Below, piece after piece: positions 16,378 through 26,721 of a stretch of 64,000 nucleotides of DNA (the stretch's first letter is position 1; the number at the start of each line of letters is the position of its first letter). Under the pieces are notes generated by a model. The model was not told where the DNA came from. It searched no databases and saw only the letters and a program-made list of their open reading frames with translations. Origin of the DNA: Escherichia phage vB_Eco_NR1; the sequence record LR990704; one strand, 5' to 3'. The translations under genes were made by a program, and so were the position numbers.

Positions 16378-19300
16378 ATGGCCGAGATTAAAAGAAAGTT
16401 CAGAGCAGAAGACGGTCTGGACGCAGGTGGCGATAAAATAATCAACGTAGCTTTAGCTGATCGTACCGTAGGAACTGACGGTGTTAACGTTGATTACTTA
16501 ATTCAAGAAAACACAGTTCAACAATACGATCCAACTCGTGGATATTTAAAAGATTTTGTAATCATTTATGATAACCGCTTTTGGGCTGCTATAAATGATA
16601 TTCCAAAACCAGCAGGAGCTTTTAATAGCGGACGCTGGAGAGCATTACGTACCGATGCTAACTGGATTACGGTTTCATCTGGTTCATATCAATTAAAATC
16701 CGGTGAAGCTATTTCGGTTAACACTGCAGCTGGAAATGACATCACGTTTACTTTACCATCTACTCCAATTGATGGTGATACTATCGTTCTCCAAGATATT
16801 GGAGGAAAACCTGGAGTTAACCAAGTTTTAATTGTAGCTCCAGTGCAAAGTATTGTAAACTTCAGAGGTCAACAAGTACGTTCAGTACTAATGACTCATC
16901 CAAAATCGCAGATAGTTTTAATTTTTAGTAATCGTCTGTGGCAAATGTATGTTGCTGATTATAGTAGAGAAGCTGTAGTTGTAACACCAGCAAGTCTCTA
17001 TCAGGCGCAATCTAATGATTTTATCGTACGTAGATTTACTTCTGCTGCACCAATTAATGTTAAACTTCCAAGATTTGCTAATCATGGCGATATTATTAAT
17101 TTCGTTGATTTAGATAAACTGAATCCACTTTATCATACAATTGTTACTACATACGATGAAACGACTTCAGTACAAGAAGTTGGAACTCATTCCATTGAAG
17201 GCCGTACATCAATTGACGGTTTCTTGATGTTTGATGATAATGAGAAATTGTGGAGATTGTTTGACGGGGATAGTAAAGCACGTTTACGCATTATAACGAC
17301 TAATTCTAATATTCGTCCAAACGAAGAAGTCATGGTATTTGGTGCGAATAACGGAACAACTCAAACAATTGAGCTTCAGCTTCCAACTAATATTTCTGTT
17401 GGTGATACTGTTAAAATTTCCATGAATTACATGAGAAAAGGACAAACAGTTAAAATCAAAGCTGCGGGCGAAGATAAAATTGCTTCTTCAGTTCAATTAC
17501 TGCAATTCCCAAAACGCTCAGAATATCCACCTGAAGCTGAATGGGTTACAGTTCAAGAATTAGTTTTTAACGGTGAAACTAATTATGTTCCAGTTTTACA
17601 ACTTGCTTATATAGAAGATTCTGATGGAAAATACTGGGTTGTACAGCAAAACGTTCCAACTGTAGAAAGAGTTGATTCTTTAAATGATTCTACTAGAGCA
17701 AGATTAGGCGTAATTGCTTTAGCTACACAAGCTCAAGCTAATGCCGATTTAGAAAATTCTCCACAAAAAGAATTAGCAATTACTCCAGAAACATTAGCTA
17801 ACCGTACTGCTACTGAAACTCGCAGAGGTATTGCAAGAATAGCAACTACTGCTCAAGTGAATCAGAACACCACATTCTCTTTTGCAGATGACCTTATCAT
17901 TACTCCTAAAAAGCTGAATGAAAGAACTGCTACAGAAACTCGCAGAGGTGTTGCTGAAATTGCTACGCAGCAAGAAACTAATGCAGGAACCGATGATACT
18001 ACAATCATCACTCCTAAAAAGCTTCAAGCTCGCCAAGGTTCTGAATCATTATCTGGTATTGTAACTTTTGTATCTACTGCAGGTGCTACTCCAGCTTCTA
18101 GTCGTGAATTAAATGGTACGAATGTTTATAATAAAAACACTAATAATTTAGTTGTTTCACCTAAAGCTTTGGATCAGTATAAAGCTACTCCAACACAGCA
18201 AGGTGCAGTAATTTTAGCAGTTGAAAGTGAAGTAATTGCTGGACAAAGCCAAGAAGGATGGGCAAATGCGGTTGTAACGCCAGAAACGTTACATAAAAAG
18301 ACATCAACTGATGCAAGAATTGGTTTAATTGAAATTGCTACGCAAAGTGAAGTTAATACAGGAACTGATTATACTCGTGCAGTCACTCCTAAAACTTTAA
18401 ATGACCGTAGAGCAACTGAAAGTTTAAGTGGTATAGCTGAAATTGCTACACAAGTTGAATTCGACGCAGGCGTCGACGATACTCGTATCTCTACACCATT
18501 AAAAATTAAAACCAGATTTAATAGTACTGATCGTACTTCTGTTGTTGCTCTATCTGGATTAGTTGAATCAGGAACTCTCTGGGACCATTATACCCTTAAT
18601 ATTCTTGAAGCAAATGAGACACAGCGTGGTACACTTCGTGTAGCTACACAGGTCGAAGCTGCTGCAGGAACATTAGATAATGTTTTAATAACTCCTAAAA
18701 AGCTTTTAGGTACTAAATCTACCGAATCGCAAGAAGGTGTTATTAAAGTTGCAACTCAGTCTGAAACTGTGGCTGGAACGTCAGCAAATACTGCTGTATC
18801 TCCAAAAAATTTAAAATGGATTGCGCAGAGTGAACCTACCTGGGCAGCTACTACTGCGATAAGAGGTTTTGTTAAAACTTCATCTGGTTCAATTACATTC
18901 GTTGGTAATGATACAGTCGGTTCTACCCAAGATTTAGAACTGTATGAGAAAAATAGCTATGCAGTATCACCATATGAATTAAACCGTGTATTAGCAAATT
19001 ATTTGCCGTTAAAAGCAAAAGCTGCTGATACAAATTTATTGGATGGTCTAGATTCATCTCAGTTCATTCGTAGGGATATTGCACAGACAGTTAATGGTTC
19101 ACTAACCTTAACTCAACAAACGAATCTGAGTGCCCCTCTTGTATCATCTAGTACTGCTACGTTTGGCGGATCAGTTTCGGCAAACAGCACATTAACTATT
19201 TCTAATACTGGAACGGCAACTCGTCTGATTTTTGAGAAAGGACCTCAAACTGGAACTAACCCAGCGCAGACGATGACTATCAGAGTTTGGGGAAATCAGT

Positions 19301-20247
19301 TTGGTGGCGGTTCAGATACAATGCGTTCTACTGTATTTGAAGTTGGTGATGAAACGTCTAATCACTTTTATTCTCAACGCAATAAAGCTGGGAATATAAC
19401 GTTTAGTATCAATGGTACTGTAATGCCAATAAATGTTAATGCTTCGGGTTCTTTGAATGCGAACGGCGTTGCAACATTTGGTAGTTCAGTTACTGCTAAT
19501 GGTGAATTCATCAGCAAGTCTGCAAATGCTTTCAGAGCAATAAATGGCGACTATGGATTCTTTATTCGCAATGATGCTGCTAACACCTATTTTATGCTTA
19601 CTGCATCGGGTGATCAGACTGGCGGATTTAATGGATTACGTCCTTTAGCTATTAATAATGCATCTGGTCAAGTAACGATTGGTGAAAGCTTAATCATTGC
19701 CAAAGGTGCTACTATAAATTCAGGTGGTTTAACTGTTAACTCGAGAATTCGTTCTCAGGGCACTAAAACATCTGACTTATATACCCGTGCGCCAACGTCT
19801 GATACTGTAGGATTCTGGTCAATCGATATTAATGATTCAGCTACTTATAACCAGTTCCCAGGTTATTTTAAAATGGTTGAAAAAACTAATGAAGTGACTG
19901 GGCTTCCATACTTAGAACGTGGCGAAGAAGTTAAATCTCCTGGTACATTGACTCAGTTTGGTAACACACTTGATTCGCTTTACCAAGATTGGATTACTTA
20001 TCCAACGACTCCAGAAGCACGTACCACTCGCTGGACACGTACATGGCAGAAAACCAAAAACTCTTGGTCAAGTTTTGTTCAGGTATTTGACGGAGGTAAC
20101 CCTCCTCAGCCGTCTGATATCGGTGCTTTACCATCTGATAATGCTACAATGGGGAATCTTACTATTCGTGATTTCTTACGAATTGGTAATGTTCGCATTA
20201 TTCCTGACCCAGTGAATAAAACGGTTAAATTTGAATGGGTTGAATAA
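16378..20247 (+). CDS. 34: long tail fibre proximal subunit gp34
   Basis: 1289 aa (T4 gp34 1289 aa); repeated IATQ/ETRRG beta-helix motifs; TATAAATA late promoter 35 nt upstream. Confidence 0.97.
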   Translation: MAEIKRKFRAEDGLDAGGDKIINVALADRTVGTDGVNVDYLIQENTVQQYDPTRGYLKDFVIIYDNRFWAAINDIPKPAGAFNSGRWRALRTDANWITVSSGSYQLKSGEAISVNTAAGNDITFTLPSTPIDGDTIVLQDIGGKPGVNQVLIVAPVQSIVNFRGQQVRSVLMTHPKSQIVLIFSNRLWQMYVADYSREAVVVTPASLYQAQSNDFIVRRFTSAAPINVKLPRFANHGDIINFVDLDKLNPLYHTIVTTYDETTSVQEVGTHSIEGRTSIDGFLMFDDNEKLWRLFDGDSKARLRIITTNSNIRPNEEVMVFGANNGTTQTIELQLPTNISVGDTVKISMNYMRKGQTVKIKAAGEDKIASSVQLLQFPKRSEYPPEAEWVTVQELVFNGETNYVPVLQLAYIEDSDGKYWVVQQNVPTVERVDSLNDSTRARLGVIALATQAQANADLENSPQKELAITPETLANRTATETRRGIARIATTAQVNQNTTFSFADDLIITPKKLNERTATETRRGVAEIATQQETNAGTDDTTIITPKKLQARQGSESLSGIVTFVSTAGATPASSRELNGTNVYNKNTNNLVVSPKALDQYKATPTQQGAVILAVESEVIAGQSQEGWANAVVTPETLHKKTSTDARIGLIEIATQSEVNTGTDYTRAVTPKTLNDRRATESLSGIAEIATQVEFDAGVDDTRISTPLKIKTRFNSTDRTSVVALSGLVESGTLWDHYTLNILEANETQRGTLRVATQVEAAAGTLDNVLITPKKLLGTKSTESQEGVIKVATQSETVAGTSANTAVSPKNLKWIAQSEPTWAATTAIRGFVKTSSGSITFVGNDTVGSTQDLELYEKNSYAVSPYELNRVLANYLPLKAKAADTNLLDGLDSSQFIRRDIAQTVNGSLTLTQQTNLSAPLVSSSTATFGGSVSANSTLTISNTGTATRLIFEKGPQTGTNPAQTMTIRVWGNQFGGGSDTMRSTVFEVGDETSNHFYSQRNKAGNITFSINGTVMPINVNASGSLNANGVATFGSSVTANGEFISKSANAFRAINGDYGFFIRNDAANTYFMLTASGDQTGGFNGLRPLAINNASGQVTIGESLIIAKGATINSGGLTVNSRIRSQGTKTSDLYTRAPTSDTVGFWSIDINDSATYNQFPGYFKMVEKTNEVTGLPYLERGEEVKSPGTLTQFGNTLDSLYQDWITYPTTPEARTTRWTRTWQKTKNSWSSFVQVFDGGNPPQPSDIGALPSDNATMGNLTIRDFLRIGNVRIIPDPVNKTVKFEWVE

Positions 20248-20255
20248 GAGGTATT

Positions 20256-21371
20256 ATGGAAAAATTTATGGCAGAGTTTGGACAAGGATATGTCCAAACG
20301 CCATTTTTATCGGAAAGCAATTCAGTAAGATACAAAATAAGTATAGCGGGTTCTTGCCCGCTTTCTACTGCAGGACCATACGTTAAATTTCAGGATAATC
20401 CTGTAGGAAGTCAAACATTTAGCGCAGGACTTCATTTAAGAGTTTTTGACCCTTCCACCGGAGCATTAGTTGATAGTAAGTCATATGCTTTTTCGACTTC
20501 AAATGATACTACATCAGCTGCTTTTGTTAGCTTCATGAATTCTTTGACAAATAATAGAATTGTTGCTATATTAACTAACGGAAAGGTTAATTTTCCTCCT
20601 GAAGTAGTATCTTGGCTAAGAACTGCAGGAACGTCTGCTTTTCCATCTGATTCTATATTGTCAAGATTCGACGTATCATATGCTGCTTTTTATACTTCTT
20701 CTAAAAGAGCTATCGCATTAGAGCATGTTAAATTAAGTAATAGAAAAAGCACAGATGATTATCAAACTATTTTAGATGTTGTATTTGACAGTTTAGAAGA
20801 CGTTGGAGCTACCGGGTTTCCAAGAAGAACGTATGAAAGCGTTGAGCAATTCATGTCAGCGGTTGGTGGAACTAATAACGAAATTGCGCGATTGCCAACT
20901 TCAGCTGCTATAAGTAAATTATCTGATTATAATTTAATTCCTGGCGATGTTCTTTATCTTAAAGCTCAGTTATATGCTGATGCTGATTTACTTGCGCTTG
21001 GAACTACGAATATATCCATTCGATTTTATAATGCATCAAATGGATATATTTCCTCAACACAGGCTGAATTTACCGGGCAAGCTGGATCTTGGGAATTAAA
21101 GGAAGATTATGTAGTTGTTCCAGAAAACGCTGTAGGATTTACGATATATGCACAAAGAACTGCACAAGCTGGCCAAGGTGGCATGAGAAATTTAAGCTTT
21201 TCTGAAGTATCAAGAAACGGCGGCATTTCAAAACCTGCTGAATTTGGCGTCAATGGTATTCGTGTTAATTATATCTGTGAATCTGCTTCACCTCCGGATA
21301 TAATGGTACTTCCTACACAAGCATCGTCTAAAACTGGTAAAGTGTTTGGGCAAGAATTTAGAGAAGTATAA
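20256..21371 (+). CDS. 35: long tail fibre hinge (knee) protein gp35
   Basis: 371 aa; position and size as T4 gp35; SD AAGAGG. Confidence 0.93.
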   Translation: MEKFMAEFGQGYVQTPFLSESNSVRYKISIAGSCPLSTAGPYVKFQDNPVGSQTFSAGLHLRVFDPSTGALVDSKSYAFSTSNDTTSAAFVSFMNSLTNNRIVAILTNGKVNFPPEVVSWLRTAGTSAFPSDSILSRFDVSYAAFYTSSKRAIALEHVKLSNRKSTDDYQTILDVVFDSLEDVGATGFPRRTYESVEQFMSAVGGTNNEIARLPTSAAISKLSDYNLIPGDVLYLKAQLYADADLLALGTTNISIRFYNASNGYISSTQAEFTGQAGSWELKEDYVVVPENAVGFTIYAQRTAQAGQGGMRNLSFSEVSRNGGISKPAEFGVNGIRVNYICESASPPDIMVLPTQASSKTGKVFGQEFREV

Positions 21372-21377
21372 ATTGAG

Positions 21378-21400
21378 GGAGCCTTCGGGTTCCCTTTTTC
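21378..21400 (+). terminator. rho-independent terminator after gene 35
   Basis: GGGAGCC-TTCG-GGTTCCC followed by TTTTT. Confidence 0.7.
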
Positions 21401-21403
21401 TTT

Positions 21404-21411
21404 ATAAATAC
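21404..21411 (+). promoter_or_regulatory. T4-type late promoter TATAAATA for gene 36
   Basis: exact TATAAATA 23 nt upstream of gene 36 ATG, just after the gene 35 terminator. Confidence 0.75.
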
Positions 21412-21433
21412 TATTAAAATAAAGGGGCATACA

Positions 21434-22096
21434 ATGGCTGATTTAAAAGTAGGTTCAACAACTGGAGGCTCTGTCATTTGGCATCAAGGAAATTTTCCAT
21501 TGAATCCAGCCGGTGACGATGTACTCTATAAATCATTTAAAATATATTCAGAATATAACAAACCACAAGCTGCAGATAACGATTTCGTTTCTAAAGCTAA
21601 TGGTGGTACTTACGCCGCGACTGTTCGATTTAATGGAGGCGTACATGTTCCTACTATAGGTAGTAGTCAACAGTGTGGTGTTTATCCAGGTAACGGTGAT
21701 GCAGCTACTTTTGCTATGGCAAATATTGACATCGTTTCGTGGAATGGTATTGGTTTTAAATCATCACAAGGTTCAGCAGACCGAACTGTTGTAATTAATG
21801 CACGTAATGGTGATATTAGTACAAAAGGCGTTGTGACAGCAGTAGGTCAAATAAGAAGTAATGCAGTTTCTCCTGTATCAGCAAATGACCTTACTAGAAA
21901 GGACTATGTTGATGGAGCAATAAATACTGTTACAGCAAATGCGAACTCTAGAGTGTTGCGTTCTGGCGACACTATGATAGGTAATTTAACCGCGCCAAAC
22001 TTTTTCTCACAGAATCCTGCATCTCAACCTTCACATGTTCCACGATTTGACCAAATCGTAATTAAGGATTCTGTTCAAGATTTCGGCTATTATTAA
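21434..22096 (+). CDS. 36: long tail fibre distal connector gp36
   Basis: 220 aa; own late promoter TATAAATA at 21404..21411; size and position as T4 gp36. Confidence 0.93.
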   Translation: MADLKVGSTTGGSVIWHQGNFPLNPAGDDVLYKSFKIYSEYNKPQAADNDFVSKANGGTYAATVRFNGGVHVPTIGSSQQCGVYPGNGDAATFAMANIDIVSWNGIGFKSSQGSADRTVVINARNGDISTKGVVTAVGQIRSNAVSPVSANDLTRKDYVDGAINTVTANANSRVLRSGDTMIGNLTAPNFFSQNPASQPSHVPRFDQIVIKDSVQDFGYY

Positions 22097-22104
22097 GAGG
22101 ACTT

Positions 22105-25100
22105 ATGGCTACTTTAAAACAAATACAATTTAAAAGAAGCAAAACCGCAGGTGCACGTCCTGCTGCTTCAGTATTAGCCGAAGGTGAATTGGCTATAAAC
22201 TTAAAAGATAGAACACTTTTTACTAAAGATGATTCAGGAAATATCATTGATTTAAGCATTTCCACTGGCGGTAATATCAGTGGAAATATCACTCAAACTG
22301 GAGATTATTTACAGAACGGTACATATAATCTCAATGGAAATCAGTTTGTTTATGCAGGAAAATATATTGAATTTTTACCTAAAACTGCAGGTAATGGCGC
22401 TTGGGCAAATCAACACCTAAATAAAGCCCCTATTTTTACAGATTTAAGTTCAACTACTTCTACTTCAGAATACCATCCGCTAATTAAACAGCGTTATAAA
22501 GATGGGACTTTTTCTGTTGGTACGCTAGTAAACGAAGGAAGTTTTAAAATTCATTATATCAATGAATCGGGAACTTCAAAATACTGGACATTTCGTAGAG
22601 ATGGTGGATTTGTTGTTGATACAGGAAGTTTGACAGTAACAGATGGAAATATTTCTGCTTCTGGTAATATTAATTCGGCTACTGGGGTAGTTTCTGCGCC
22701 ACGTGTCAACACAAAAAATATTAACATAAGCACGAAAACCTTTATCCCGAATAATGACGCGGGTTATGACATTGTTTCTTTACCTACCTGGGTTTATAAC
22801 CCACCGGCCGATGGTTCCGACAATACTACAAATGGATTGAACTATTTGCGTAAATTACGTGCATCAAGCGCATCAAGTATTTTCCATGAAATTGTTGATT
22901 GTCGAAAAGGTAAGCCGCAAGAAATTTCTTGGTGGACTGGTGTAGGACCTTCGTCTTTCCAGTGGGCGTTTGATACCTCTGGACGTATTACTGCAGGTAA
23001 ATCTATTTCTGTAGGTCTTCCTGATAGTGGTACAAATGGTCGTTATCCTTTAGATTCTGCAATTTCTATTGGTATTGCGATTGGCGATAACGATACCGGT
23101 ATTAAATGGGTCCGCGATGGCGTTTATGACCTGATGGCTAACGGTATTTCATCTGCTACCATTTTGAATAATGGTATTAATAGTACTAAAAAATTGATGG
23201 TTGGTTATAGTCGAGATTCCGGTTCTACTTGGGATTTCCCAAATAATAACCAAGCAATGTTTACTGCGCGTACCGATGTTGATGGTAATAATAACGGCGA
23301 TGGACAGACTCATATCGGATATAGCAGCAATGCTAAGATGTATCACTATTTCCGTGGTACAGGTCGTATGTCCGTTAGTATGGGTGATGGGCTTCTTGTT
23401 GAGCCTGGCATTTTAGATATTAAAACCGGTTCTAATAGCGTTGCTATTAGAGCAGACGGAACAATTAACTCCACCCAGCGTATTTCTATGCGTACGGGCT
23501 TGTTTTTAAATGGTGATGATAATACTAATGCTTTATCGTTTAAAGCTCCTTCCGGTGTAGATGGTACCAAAACCATTAACTGGGATGCAGGTACTCGTAA
23601 TGGTCAGAATAAAAATACCGTAACCATTAAAGCATGGGGTAATTCATTTAACGCTGAAAAGGGTAATAGAGAAACTGTATTCGAAGTTTCAGATTCACAA
23701 GGTTATTATTTCTACGCTCAACGTACTAATCCTGCGTCAGGTCAAACAGTAGGTCCGGTTAACTTTAAATTTAACGGAACTGTCGAAACAGGCCATATCA
23801 TAGGCCTTGGTAATATAAGTGCCTCCGGTACAGGTTCTTTTGGTGGCAATGTTACTATGTCTAACGGTTTGTTTGTCCAAGGTGGTTCTTCTATTACAGG
23901 CCAAGTAAAAATTGGTGGAACAGCTGACGCATTAAGAATTTGGAATGCTGAATACGGCGCAATTTTCCGTCGTTCTGAAAGTAACTTTTATATTATTCCA
24001 ACTCTTAAAGATGCTGGAGAATCAGGTGGTATAAGTAATCTTAGACCATTGATAATAGAACTGAACACCGGCACAGTTAAAATGTCGCATGATGTTCATT
24101 TAGGAGATTCTGGATCTGGTACAGGATTATTACAAGTAAGTAATAGTCTTAAAACTATTAAAATGATATGTCCAGTAACTATTAATGAACGTAATGCAGC
24201 GCTTACTCTAGATTCTCCTTCATCTTCTTCTGCTAATTATTTACAAGGTTCTAAAGCTGGAATTAGATCGTGGTATGTTGGTCTTGGTGGCGCTGGAAGT
24301 GATTTATCGCTTTATAGTCAATCATATGGACACGGTCTTGTTATAAGCGATAATTTCGTGTCAATCAGTAAACCTCTTAAAGTCGGAAATGCCCAACTAG
24401 GAACTGACGGTAATATTACCAACGGTTCTGGTAATTTTGCTAACTTAAACACCACGCTAAATCGTAAAGTTAATTCTGGATTTATTACTTATGGAGCAAC
24501 TGCTGGATGGTATAAGTTTGCAACAGTAACAATGCCACAATCCACTTCTACGGTCTTCTTTAAAATAGCCGGTGGTTCTGGATTTAATAGTGGATTATTC
24601 ACACAATGCAATATTGCTGAAATTGTTTTACGTACTAGTAATGAAAGACCTGCTGACTTAAATGCTGTATTATACACAAGAACAATTGCAGCTGCATTTA
24701 AAAATATTGCAGTTAATAACGTCTCTGGAGATACATATGACATTTATGTTTATGCCGGAACATATTGCAATCAATTAACTTGTGAATGGTCATGTACCGA
24801 AAATGCTACTGTTAGCGTTATTGGTATTAACTCATCTACCCAATCACCTGTGGATGCTCTTCCAGATACAGCAGTTGATGGGCAAGTTGCTAATGTTCTT
24901 AATAACTTGGTTGATCGCGGCAAAGTTAAGCGTTATGAAGCCGATTCTGAAATAGCTATTAATAACCAAACTGGTATTCGTATTAGAAGCAACAGCGATA
25001 AAACTGGTTCTGTTGCTACAATGCTACGAAATGATGGCAGTAGTTTTTATATTCTGTTTACAGATAAAAATGCCACCGATGGCGAAGCAACTGTTAACGG

Positions 25101-25905
25101 TGATTGGAATAGTAAGCGTCCTTTCGCAATTAACTTAACAACAGGCGAAGTATTAATGAATAACGGCATAGCTGTTCGCAGTGCTGCTTTATTCTATAAT
25201 AGCATAAATGTCAAAGATAATGGTTCTATTAACTTTGATAAGTCTGGTGCTAACCCAAGAAATATGAGAATATTTCATGCTGGCGATGCTTCTCGTGGTA
25301 ACCGTATTGAAATTGCCGATGAAACTAACTATATTGCTTACTTTGAAAAAGCTCCAGGTGGAGCTAACCGCTTTGTAGTAAATAATGCTACTGTAGCTGG
25401 TGTTAACCAAATGAATTCATTTGGTATTAATATCAATAACGCACTTGGTGGAAATAGTATAGCATTTGGTGATAGCGATACTGGTATTAAGCAAAATGGC
25501 GATGGATTATTAGACATATATGCGAACAGCGTACAAGTATTCCGTTTCCAAAACGGTGATTTGTACTCATATAAAAATATAAATGCTCCAAACGTTTATA
25601 TTCGTTCTGATATTCGCTTAAAATCTAATTTCAAACCTATCGAAAATGCACTTGATAAAGTTGAAAAACTCAATGGTGTCATTTATGATAAAGCTGAATA
25701 CATCGGTGGAGAGGCAATTGAAACTGAAGCGGGTATTGTAGCTCAAACGTTACAAGACGTTTTACCAGAAGCCGTCCGTGAAACAGAAGACAGCAAGGGT
25801 AATAAAATACTCACTGTTTCTTCTCAAGCCCAGATTGCTCTTCTGGTTGAAGCTGTGAAAACGCTTTCTTCTCGTGTAAAAGAACTTGAATCTAAACTTA
25901 TGTAA
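22105..25905 (+). CDS. 37: long tail fibre distal subunit gp37 (T2-type, with C-terminal intramolecular chaperone-like domain)
   Basis: 1266 aa; N-terminus MATLKQIQFKRSKTAGARPA as in T4 gp37; C-terminal about 100 aa carry an S74-like motif SDIRLKSNFKPIENALDKVEKLNGVIYD. Confidence 0.95.
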   Translation: MATLKQIQFKRSKTAGARPAASVLAEGELAINLKDRTLFTKDDSGNIIDLSISTGGNISGNITQTGDYLQNGTYNLNGNQFVYAGKYIEFLPKTAGNGAWANQHLNKAPIFTDLSSTTSTSEYHPLIKQRYKDGTFSVGTLVNEGSFKIHYINESGTSKYWTFRRDGGFVVDTGSLTVTDGNISASGNINSATGVVSAPRVNTKNINISTKTFIPNNDAGYDIVSLPTWVYNPPADGSDNTTNGLNYLRKLRASSASSIFHEIVDCRKGKPQEISWWTGVGPSSFQWAFDTSGRITAGKSISVGLPDSGTNGRYPLDSAISIGIAIGDNDTGIKWVRDGVYDLMANGISSATILNNGINSTKKLMVGYSRDSGSTWDFPNNNQAMFTARTDVDGNNNGDGQTHIGYSSNAKMYHYFRGTGRMSVSMGDGLLVEPGILDIKTGSNSVAIRADGTINSTQRISMRTGLFLNGDDNTNALSFKAPSGVDGTKTINWDAGTRNGQNKNTVTIKAWGNSFNAEKGNRETVFEVSDSQGYYFYAQRTNPASGQTVGPVNFKFNGTVETGHIIGLGNISASGTGSFGGNVTMSNGLFVQGGSSITGQVKIGGTADALRIWNAEYGAIFRRSESNFYIIPTLKDAGESGGISNLRPLIIELNTGTVKMSHDVHLGDSGSGTGLLQVSNSLKTIKMICPVTINERNAALTLDSPSSSSANYLQGSKAGIRSWYVGLGGAGSDLSLYSQSYGHGLVISDNFVSISKPLKVGNAQLGTDGNITNGSGNFANLNTTLNRKVNSGFITYGATAGWYKFATVTMPQSTSTVFFKIAGGSGFNSGLFTQCNIAEIVLRTSNERPADLNAVLYTRTIAAAFKNIAVNNVSGDTYDIYVYAGTYCNQLTCEWSCTENATVSVIGINSSTQSPVDALPDTAVDGQVANVLNNLVDRGKVKRYEADSEIAINNQTGIRIRSNSDKTGSVATMLRNDGSSFYILFTDKNATDGEATVNGDWNSKRPFAINLTTGEVLMNNGIAVRSAALFYNSINVKDNGSINFDKSGANPRNMRIFHAGDASRGNRIEIADETNYIAYFEKAPGGANRFVVNNATVAGVNQMNSFGININNALGGNSIAFGDSDTGIKQNGDGLLDIYANSVQVFRFQNGDLYSYKNINAPNVYIRSDIRLKSNFKPIENALDKVEKLNGVIYDKAEYIGGEAIETEAGIVAQTLQDVLPEAVRETEDSKGNKILTVSSQAQIALLVEAVKTLSSRVKELESKLM

Positions 25906-25935: not shown

Positions 25936-26721
25936 ATGGCAATTGTAGGTGTTCCTGGCTGGATTGGTGAATCTGCCGTGAATGAAACTGGACAGCGTTG
26001 GATGGATGCTGCGATGAGAGCAGTTCGTGTTTCAGTTCCTGGTTGGATGAGCTCAATGGCTGGGCAATCTAAAGAAGTATATTATAGCATTGGTGCTAGC
26101 AATTCTTACAATAAAGACACACTAATAAATTGGATAAAAGCCCAAGGAAGTACTCCTGTTGTTATTACTATTACAGGAAATATCGTTTCTTCATCGACAG
26201 GTCAACCATGCTTAGATTTTCCTAGCTCATTAACTAATGCATACGTGACACTTAATATCAATTCAGGCGTGCATGTTTGGGGTCGCGGCGGGAATGGTGG
26301 AAATAACTCTGCTGGCGGAGCAGGAGGAACTGCAATAAATAACGGAATTGGAACTAGATTACGTATTAATAACAATGGTGTTATCGCAGGTGGCGGTGGC
26401 GGCGGTGGCGGCGGATACTACTCTCCTTTTTCACAAATGAGATTGACTTTTGGCGGTGGAGGTGGTCGTCCATTTGGTGCTGCTGGTGGGTCTGCTAATA
26501 TGGAACAGGGTGCTACTGCTGGTACTATTTCTGCGCCCGGTAAAGGGTCTGTCAATGGTATCTATAATGGCGGGAATGGTGGTGATGCCGGTGCCGCAGG
26601 AGGTAAATGTAATATTCGCGGTCAAGGATCAGAATATAACGGCGGCGCTGCTGGTAAAGCTGTTACTGGTAATGCTCCAACTTGGACTAAAGTTGGCACA
26701 ATATATGGTTCAAGAGTATAA
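25936..26721 (+). CDS. 38: receptor-recognising adhesin gp38 (T2-type, glycine-rich motifs)
   Basis: 261 aa with multiple poly-Gly motifs (GGGGGGGGGYYSPF, FGGGGGRPFGAAGG, GGNGGDAGAAGG); T2/T6-type rather than T4-type (183 aa). Confidence 0.92.
   Translation: MAIVGVPGWIGESAVNETGQRWMDAAMRAVRVSVPGWMSSMAGQSKEVYYSIGASNSYNKDTLINWIKAQGSTPVVITITGNIVSSSTGQPCLDFPSSLTNAYVTLNINSGVHVWGRGGNGGNNSAGGAGGTAINNGIGTRLRINNNGVIAGGGGGGGGGYYSPFSQMRLTFGGGGGRPFGAAGGSANMEQGATAGTISAPGKGSVNGIYNGGNGGDAGAAGGKCNIRGQGSEYNGGAAGKAVTGNAPTWTKVGTIYGSRV
26389..26415 (+). repeat. GGY codon tract encoding nine consecutive glycines in gp38 (glycine-rich motif)
   Basis: ggtggcggtggcggcggtggcggcgga. Confidence 0.8.

Follow-up and report, generated by a model that had tools for sequence, protein, structure and literature searches.

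Do the proximal and the distal subunits of the long tail fibre carry the same building block, and if so, do the two genes that encode it exchange DNA through it today? The question is raised by the long-tail-fibre cluster of a T4-like phage, Escherichia phage vB_Eco_NR1 (LR990704), where genes 34, 35, 36, 37 and 38 are all encoded on the + strand. By the window we mean the whole stretch of 64,000 nucleotides (nt) that was analysed, and all positions count along that stretch. The original prediction, made from the letters of the DNA alone, had placed a homologous module at nt 19265-19690 of gene 34 and nt 23613-24080 of gene 37, and regarded modules common to fibre genes as substrates for the recombinational shuffling known from T-even tail fibres. 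The two genes and their module copies are as follows.

16378..20247, + strand: gene 34, long-tail-fibre proximal subunit; open reading frame (ORF) of 1289 amino acids (aa); Pfam Gp34_trimer and Gp34_2nd; PDB 4uxe, 5nxf, 5nxh, 9x3r
19231..19692, + strand: gp34 module copy, residues 952-1105, with most of P3, the beta-helix turn and P4
22105..25905, + strand: gene 37, long-tail-fibre distal subunit; ORF of 1266 aa; Pfam Peptidase_S74, gp37_trimer and Gp34_trimer; PDB 6f45
23581..24096, + strand: gp37 module copy, residues 493-664

The best local alignment of the two proteins joined residues 952-1105 of gp34 (nt 19231-19692) with residues 493-664 of gp37 (nt 23581-24096), with 57 of 174 residues identical (33%) and a BLASTP E-value of 1e-17. 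The Smith-Waterman score of this pair was 217, while 1000 composition-preserving shuffles scored 40 +/- 7 with a maximum of 67 (z=25), and no other part of gp37 scored above 91. The P3 half and the P4 half were each significant alone (z=14.6 and z=14.3, respectively), the linker between them being weaker (z=5.2). The flanks on both sides of the module had no gp34/gp37 similarity (z about 0), thus the likeness ends at both edges. T4 and AR1 have the same pair, with E-values of 1e-13 and 8e-18, respectively, and 26 columns were invariant over six gp34 and gp37 alleles. Profile searches gave the same picture. Pfam PF21446 (Gp34_trimer, gathering cut-off 27 bits) was passed by gp34 with 115.3 bits (residues 983-1092, E=2.8e-33), as well as by gp37 with 39.4 bits in two stretches, of which 517-651 was the best. 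Among PHROG families, the gp37 copy matched phrog_1699 with E=1.4e-52. A hidden Markov model (HMM) of the module, run over six frames of the whole window, detected no copy beyond those in genes 34 and 37. Judged by these comparisons, the shared stretch is a homologous module of approximately 155-170 residues in both proteins, and the first part of the original prediction is confirmed. All four peptide strings on which it was based were found, namely TIRVWGNQ from nt 19276 (gp34 residue 967) and SGQVTI to nt 19680, TIKAWGNS from nt 23623 (gp37 residue 507) and TGTVKM to nt 24084. The predicted boundaries were in the right place, but they deviated by 4-11 nt and did not keep to the reading frame.

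The architecture of the gp34 copy can be read from the solved structure of T4 gp34. There the triple beta-helix comprises residues 901-944, 1014-1047, 1105-1128 and 1255-1271, with the knobs P3, P4 and P5 between these segments (Granell et al., 2017, PMC5537660). In each knob every chain contributes an antiparallel sheet of five strands, and the three sheets together surround a hydrophobic core (PMC5537660). Length and residue numbering of the present gp34 are the same as in T4 gp34, and the limits of P3 and P4 given here were derived from the published T4 helix ranges (PMC5537660).

19210-19416, + strand: gp34 P3 knob, residues 945-1013
19417-19518, + strand: gp34 triple beta-helix turn, residues 1014-1047
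19519-19689, + strand: gp34 P4 knob, residues 1048-1104
23581-23784, + strand: gp37 P3-like part, residues 493-560
23785-23919, + strand: gp37 beta-helix linker with a 12-residue insertion, residues 561-605
23920-24096, + strand: gp37 P4-like unit "a" (P4a), residues 606-664
24973..25179, + strand: second, lone P4-type unit of gp37, residues ~957-1025

In comparison to gp34, the P3-like part of gp37 has a 6-residue insertion and its linker is 12 residues longer; the linkers of AR1 and Kelasse gp37 are shorter than the one here. Such variation in linker length is expected of a beta-helix, which is able to grow or shrink by strands. The gp34 copy matched the solved T4 gp34 chains (4uxe, 5nxf, 5nxh and the full-length 9x3r) with E-values of about 5e-84 to 2e-82. 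The gp37 copy matched T4 gp34 chains as well when searched by phmmer (E=1.1e-13 to 1.7e-13), residues 4-168 of the query being aligned with 76-222 of 4uxe and 175-321 of 5nxf, and the match covered both knobs. From these matches we infer that the gp37 copy shares the P3/P4 fold of gp34. The lone P4-type unit of gp37 was recognized by the module HMM with an independent domain E-value (i-E) of 1.9e-6. Its z-scores were 9.4 against gp34 P4 and 10.1 against gp37 P4a, with BLASTP E-values of 0.006 against gp34 and 8e-5 against P4a, and six PHROG tail-fibre families aligned with it in their P4 part, the best at E=8.5e-9. A second P3-like unit was considered at gp37 residues 1046-1165, which hit gp34 957-1071 by BLASTP with E=0.003. 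This candidate was dropped on an HMM i-E of 0.47 and z-scores of 3.0-3.7, which lie within the range of shuffles. RB49 aligns to gp37 residues 924-1072 with E=2e-9, so something related may sit there, and we do not claim a second P3.

We consider it highly probable that the module is an ancient homologous shaft cassette, carried by two paralogues that separated long ago, with its units drawn from a common pool and with recombination now acting between alleles. The cassette would be a building block of trimeric shafts, made of two small triangular beta-sheet knobs and a short triple beta-helix; gp34 and gp37 of T4 are parallel homotrimers which need the chaperone gp57A, as known from the literature (PMC3004832). 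In gp34, the cassette supplies two of the three beads directly before the knee. In gp37, it would give two beads halfway along the distal half-fibre, and the lone P4-type unit would give a further bead nearer the tip. The role of the cassette would be architectural, i.e., it would trimerise, stiffen and space the shaft, whilst receptor binding would not be a task of the cassette and is here assigned to gp38 at the tip. The copies in genes 34 and 37 would have parted long ago and would evolve separately now. Saturated silent sites and the occurrence of the pair in T4 and AR1 as well as in the present phage point to an old split. The units of the cassette would belong to a pool of tail-fibre domains common to many myoviruses. 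Recombination today would join alleles of one gene from different phages, and would not link gene 34 with gene 37.

Another account of two homologous copies in one genome is a single duplication in an ancestral T4-like genome, followed by vertical divergence only and with no input from outside. The order of P3, beta-helix and P4 is identical in both genes, the pair occurs in T4, AR1 and the present phage, and all whole-module matches in the phage collection came from T4-like phages only; all of this would fit a single duplication. The separate units speak against it. By BLASTP, gp37 P4a was 50% identical over 74 aa to residues 467-539 of gpH from the P2-like P2_AC1 (E=8.4e-17), and when the P4 unit was compared alone, the identity was 58% to P2-like gpH but just 35% to P4 of gp34 from the same phage. 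The gp34 P4 unit, in turn, was nearer to a stretch of gp37 from Winklervirus Virsaitis27 (Erwinia phage) and Karamvirus EnC15 (Enterobacter phage), with 53-59% identity by BLASTP and 62-67% for the unit alone. The gp34 proteins of these two phages lack the unit: their P3-P5 region is 18-38% identical to the present gp34, as compared to 52-63% for the remainder, and it had no BLASTP match to their own gp37. The gp34 P4 unit also matched the fibre protein S of Mu (5yvq residues 265-332, E=4.8e-21). P4 units were sorted into two subtypes, FFIRND..TYFMLT and AIFRRSE..YIIPT, with 55-75% identity within and 27-38% between subtypes. These subtypes cut across gp34, gp37 and P2-like gpH, in such a way that the P4 of gp37 is of the gpH subtype, while the P4 of gp34 is of the subtype found in Winklervirus and Karamvirus gp37. 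The gp34 module fits the PHROG profile of the gp37 family (E=4.8e-34) better than that of the gp34 family (E=7.8e-9). The P4 unit matched at least 10 PHROG tail-fibre families. The two halves also occur apart from each other, with P3-only and P4-only matches found separately in other phages. In RB49 (Krischvirus, OZ035808.1, 66132-67421) a single fibre ORF has a P4-type unit followed, about 100 residues on, by a P3-type unit, so that the order known from gp34 and gp37 of Tequatrovirus is inverted. A single duplication without outside input is thus unlikely.

An ancient shaft cassette with a mainly structural task has also to be compared with what is seen in gene 34 at population level. The gp34 of the present phage is 95.7% identical to T4 gp34 (gp37 is merely 39% identical to its T4 counterpart), and strong divergence within gp34 is confined to one block.

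19138..19680, + strand: polymorphic block of gene 34, residues ~921-1100; overlaps the module and ends with P4

This block was the sole strongly divergent part of gp34 in comparisons with T4 and AR1, with 62-92% protein identity as opposed to 95-100% elsewhere, and it stops sharply at residue 1100/1101, which is the end of P4. In the phage collection, an identity of 99% or more to the gp34 module was seen in only 12 records, and 333 fell into the 80-90% band; for the adjoining P5 domain, 550 records reached 99% or more. Synonymous divergence (dS) in the block was 0.53-1.05 versus 0.10-0.17 in the flanks, a 5-7-fold difference, and the ratio of non-synonymous to synonymous divergence (dN/dS) of the block was 0.15-0.18. 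High dS together with low dN/dS indicates old alleles exchanged by recombination, and not local positive selection. One record with an 87% identical gp34 module, PV654520.1 (142 kb), goes under the name "Pseudomonas phage vB_PSGBLB0006" with P. aeruginosa given as host, which is unusual for a sequence of Tequatrovirus type.

The polymorphism could be taken to mean that the knobs are also accessory ligand or contact surfaces (for glycans, whiskers or sheath, or in evasion of host defence or antibodies), so that their variability is functional. Polymorphism in gp34 is indeed concentrated in its cassette, the cassette of gp37 is a mosaic, and pyocin knob domains are reported to be similar to a gp34 domain (PMC6116203). 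The substitution pattern just described speaks against it, as imported old alleles under purifying selection do not amount to adaptive change, and receptor recognition in such fibres is assigned to gp38 (Pfam GP38; PMC3157838). Functional contact surfaces are therefore rather improbable. Less probable again is the putative extension of this idea, according to which the cassette would act beyond a spacer as a swappable specificity or contact cassette of both half-fibres. If true, the gp34 copy would be kept polymorphic via allele exchange with its knobs touching something variable, i.e., a surface glycan, the whiskers or sheath when the fibre is retracted, or a target of host defence or antibodies, and fibre behaviour would have a hidden second determinant besides gp37 and gp38.

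The original prediction implied that the copies in genes 34 and 37 could still recombine with each other, homologously or ectopically (gene conversion), within one genome. Such partnership may be expected because T-even fibre genes are known to be shuffled where motifs are conserved (Tetart 1996, 1998, as cited in PMC3157838), and both copies sit in polymorphic or mosaic stretches. Pairwise alignments of protein and DNA, which had been proposed as a check, gave opposite outcomes: the proteins were far above background, as seen from the z-score given above, but the DNA was at the level of composition and shuffles. Over the aligned module codons the DNA was 48.7% identical, with 55%, 60% and 31% at the first, second and third codon positions, respectively, and for third positions 34% is predicted by composition alone. 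The longest in-register identical run between the two modules was 8 nt, and their longest common substring 9 nt, compared to a mean of 9.5 in codon-shuffled sequences. For the whole genes 34 and 37 the longest common substring, located outside the match of the modules, was 14 nt, which is just the highest value reached by shuffles. A search for DNA repeats over 16378-25905 gave only short families of about 65-83% identity, none of them in the register of the protein alignment. Two of these families, D8 and D15, tie gene 34 to gene 37 at other offsets, and were set aside because they look like chance. We also compared 19 module alleles, drawn from T4, T2, AR1, Mosigvirus, RB49, a Yersinia phage and IMG/VR contigs. 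The gp34-type alleles were always 28-40% identical to the gp37-type ones, with zero intermediates. A scan of IMG/VR yielded 12 loci, all of them either gp34-type (86-92%) or gp37-type (31-33%), again with no intermediates. Neither DNA identity, nor identical runs, nor the 19 alleles contained a trace of recent gene conversion between genes 34 and 37. Near-identical DNA common to both genes, by which Tetart-type exchange would be recognized, was not observed in this pair. Since the similarity exists at protein level only and the DNA is too diverged, the two copies are not present-day recombination substrates for each other, and live partnership within one genome is very improbable.

The situation is different between gene 37 alleles of different phages. 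Compared with slur07, the present gp37 was 100% identical to approximately residue 750, and beyond it the identity was 39-66% (residues 800-1050). For Kelasse gp37, 96-100% identity was limited to residues 1151-1266, and for BYEP01, 92-98% identity extended across most of residues 1-500 and then dropped. Within the module, T4 gene 37 had a 53-nt exact run at residue 581, and gene 37 of the Mosigvirus vB_EcoM-172859UKE1 (MZ234025), a member of another genus, had exact runs of 74 and 98 nt at residues 541-598 (23725-23897 of the window), situated in flanking gene 37 sequence of merely ~50-60% identity. BYEP01 had runs of 20 to 43 nt inside the module and a 95-nt run just upstream, at residue 459. 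The module thus contains islands of near-identical DNA among gene 37 alleles, with a surrounding identity of ~35-65%, and the identity between alleles dropped from 70-100% to 10-50% at residues ~500, 540, 580 and 660. Near-identical islands with breakpoints at their edges, the features sought for Tetart-type exchange, are in this case present. Conserved motifs are the sites of recombination in the distal fibre locus of T-even phages (Tetart 1998, as cited in PMC3157838), and on allele comparison the gene 37 pattern is classical exchange at such motifs. What was predicted about shuffling is not supported for the pair of genes 34 and 37, with its 48.7% DNA identity and runs of 8-9 nt, but is supported in a wider sense, for the gene 37 mosaics, the gp34 block and the P4 subtypes.

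Chance resemblance between two glycine-, serine- and threonine-rich beta-fibre sequences, which could be suspected from the biased composition of fibre proteins and from weak off-register matches such as gp34 957-1071 versus gp37 1046-1165, has practically no probability against a z-score of 25 over composition-preserving shuffles, a score of 217 where other parts of gp37 reach at most 91, invariant columns (26) in six alleles and a curated Pfam model that matches both proteins.

Some observations weigh against the ancient shaft cassette as we describe it. A PDB search with the whole gp37 gave only 6f45, 4a0t and 4a0u, none of which covers the module copy. An AlphaFold2 monomer of the gp37 copy, built from a 2-sequence alignment, was all-beta but too poor for use (mean predicted local distance difference test (pLDDT) score 47.3, predicted template modelling score (pTM) 0.45). 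The direction of the unit transfers, as well as their timing, is inferred. Finally, if the role were purely structural, it would be odd for the cassette to be the single polymorphic part of gp34.

The remaining genes of the cluster are these.

20256-21371, + strand: gene 35, ORF
21434-22096, + strand: gene 36, ORF
25936-26721, + strand: gp38 adhesin gene, ORF downstream of gene 37; Pfam GP38

Megablast of the region led to Tequatrovirus, with top records such as slur07, SA20RB and RB18 at 93-95% identity, and the cluster is that of a T2-type Tequatrovirus. The fibre tip is of the T2/S16 type and not the T4-type needle. At the C-terminus of gp37, residues 1168-1225 correspond to the Peptidase_S74 intramolecular chaperone, and the C-terminal part (residues ~1106-1266, nt 25420-25905) is 44% identical to residues 549-646 of P2-like gpH. 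Residues 58-127 of the knee protein gp35 matched Pfam PF15711 (ILEI, interleukin-like EMT inducer domain) with E=6.2e-9 and 36.7 bits at a cut-off of 27. Upstream of the module, nt 17779-18449 (gp34 residues ~468-690) contain 68-nt direct DNA repeats with 68-72% identity, encoding a recurring motif of the type ITPxxL..R.ATE.RRG.A.IAT. They fall inside the quasi-repeat rod region of gp34, described for residues 438-797 and as present in gp12 too (PMC3004832).

The result chiefly confirms what textbooks say of the modular build of T-even tail fibres; one trimeric knob-and-helix block serves both half-fibres, proximal as well as distal, and is used again in fibres of the P2 and Mu kind. The finding as such is already known; the longer extent, the subtype pattern and the additional P4 unit refine it and are no new kind of thing. 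For practical purposes, the module boundaries at gp37 ~493 and ~664 and at gp34 ~921 and ~1100 are natural junctions for chimeric-fibre engineering, and the solved gp34 structure can serve for modelling the gp37 copy. It was mildly unexpected to find gp34, otherwise almost invariant, with its module copy as the one polymorphic, exchanged block, and this may merit a look at population level.

Several known systems can be compared directly. For T4, Leiman et al. (2010, PMC3004832, citing its ref. 65) record that residues 486-513 of gp37 resemble residues 971-998 of gp34. The gene pair is the same as here, and so is the place, at the start of the module with its WGNxF...RxTVFEV motif. However, the similarity described there spans 28 residues, while in our case it extends over ~155-170 residues, including the P4 half, and is accompanied by the lone second P4 unit of gp37. 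With regard to the P3/P4 region of T4 gp34 (4UXE, 5NXF, 5NXH; PMC5537660), the gp34 copy is the same region, and the gp37 copy matches the same chains and Pfam PF21446. It differs from that region in being 33% identical, in the 6-residue insertion in P3 and the 12-residue longer linker, and in its position at mid-shaft of the distal half-fibre instead of next to the knee.

The P4-type unit ...R..N..YG...R.....Y...T....G....LRP..I....G.V is common to the present proteins, P2-like gpH and Mu gpS (5YVQ, 9KI1), but the P2-like and Mu fibres have it without an adjoining P3-like half. The RBPseg atlas lists the mobile tail-fibre pseudo-domains D11, D40 and D73 in the distal part of T4 gp34 (PMC12143355). 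As in our data, distal gp34 domains recur there at differing positions in differing fibre classes (PMC12143355), although the atlas is based on structure and the present evidence on sequence, and D11, D40 and D73 could not be mapped residue by residue onto P3 and P4. The exchange described by Tetart et al. (1998), as cited in PMC3157838, agrees with the gene 37 alleles examined here, which are mosaics: they have exact DNA runs of 53-98 nt in common, and their breakpoints lie at the module or within it. That mechanism joins alleles of the same gene, whereas the gene 34 and gene 37 copies are without usable DNA identity. Long-tail-fibre plasticity has been attributed to interchangeable fibrous motifs (PMC3157838).

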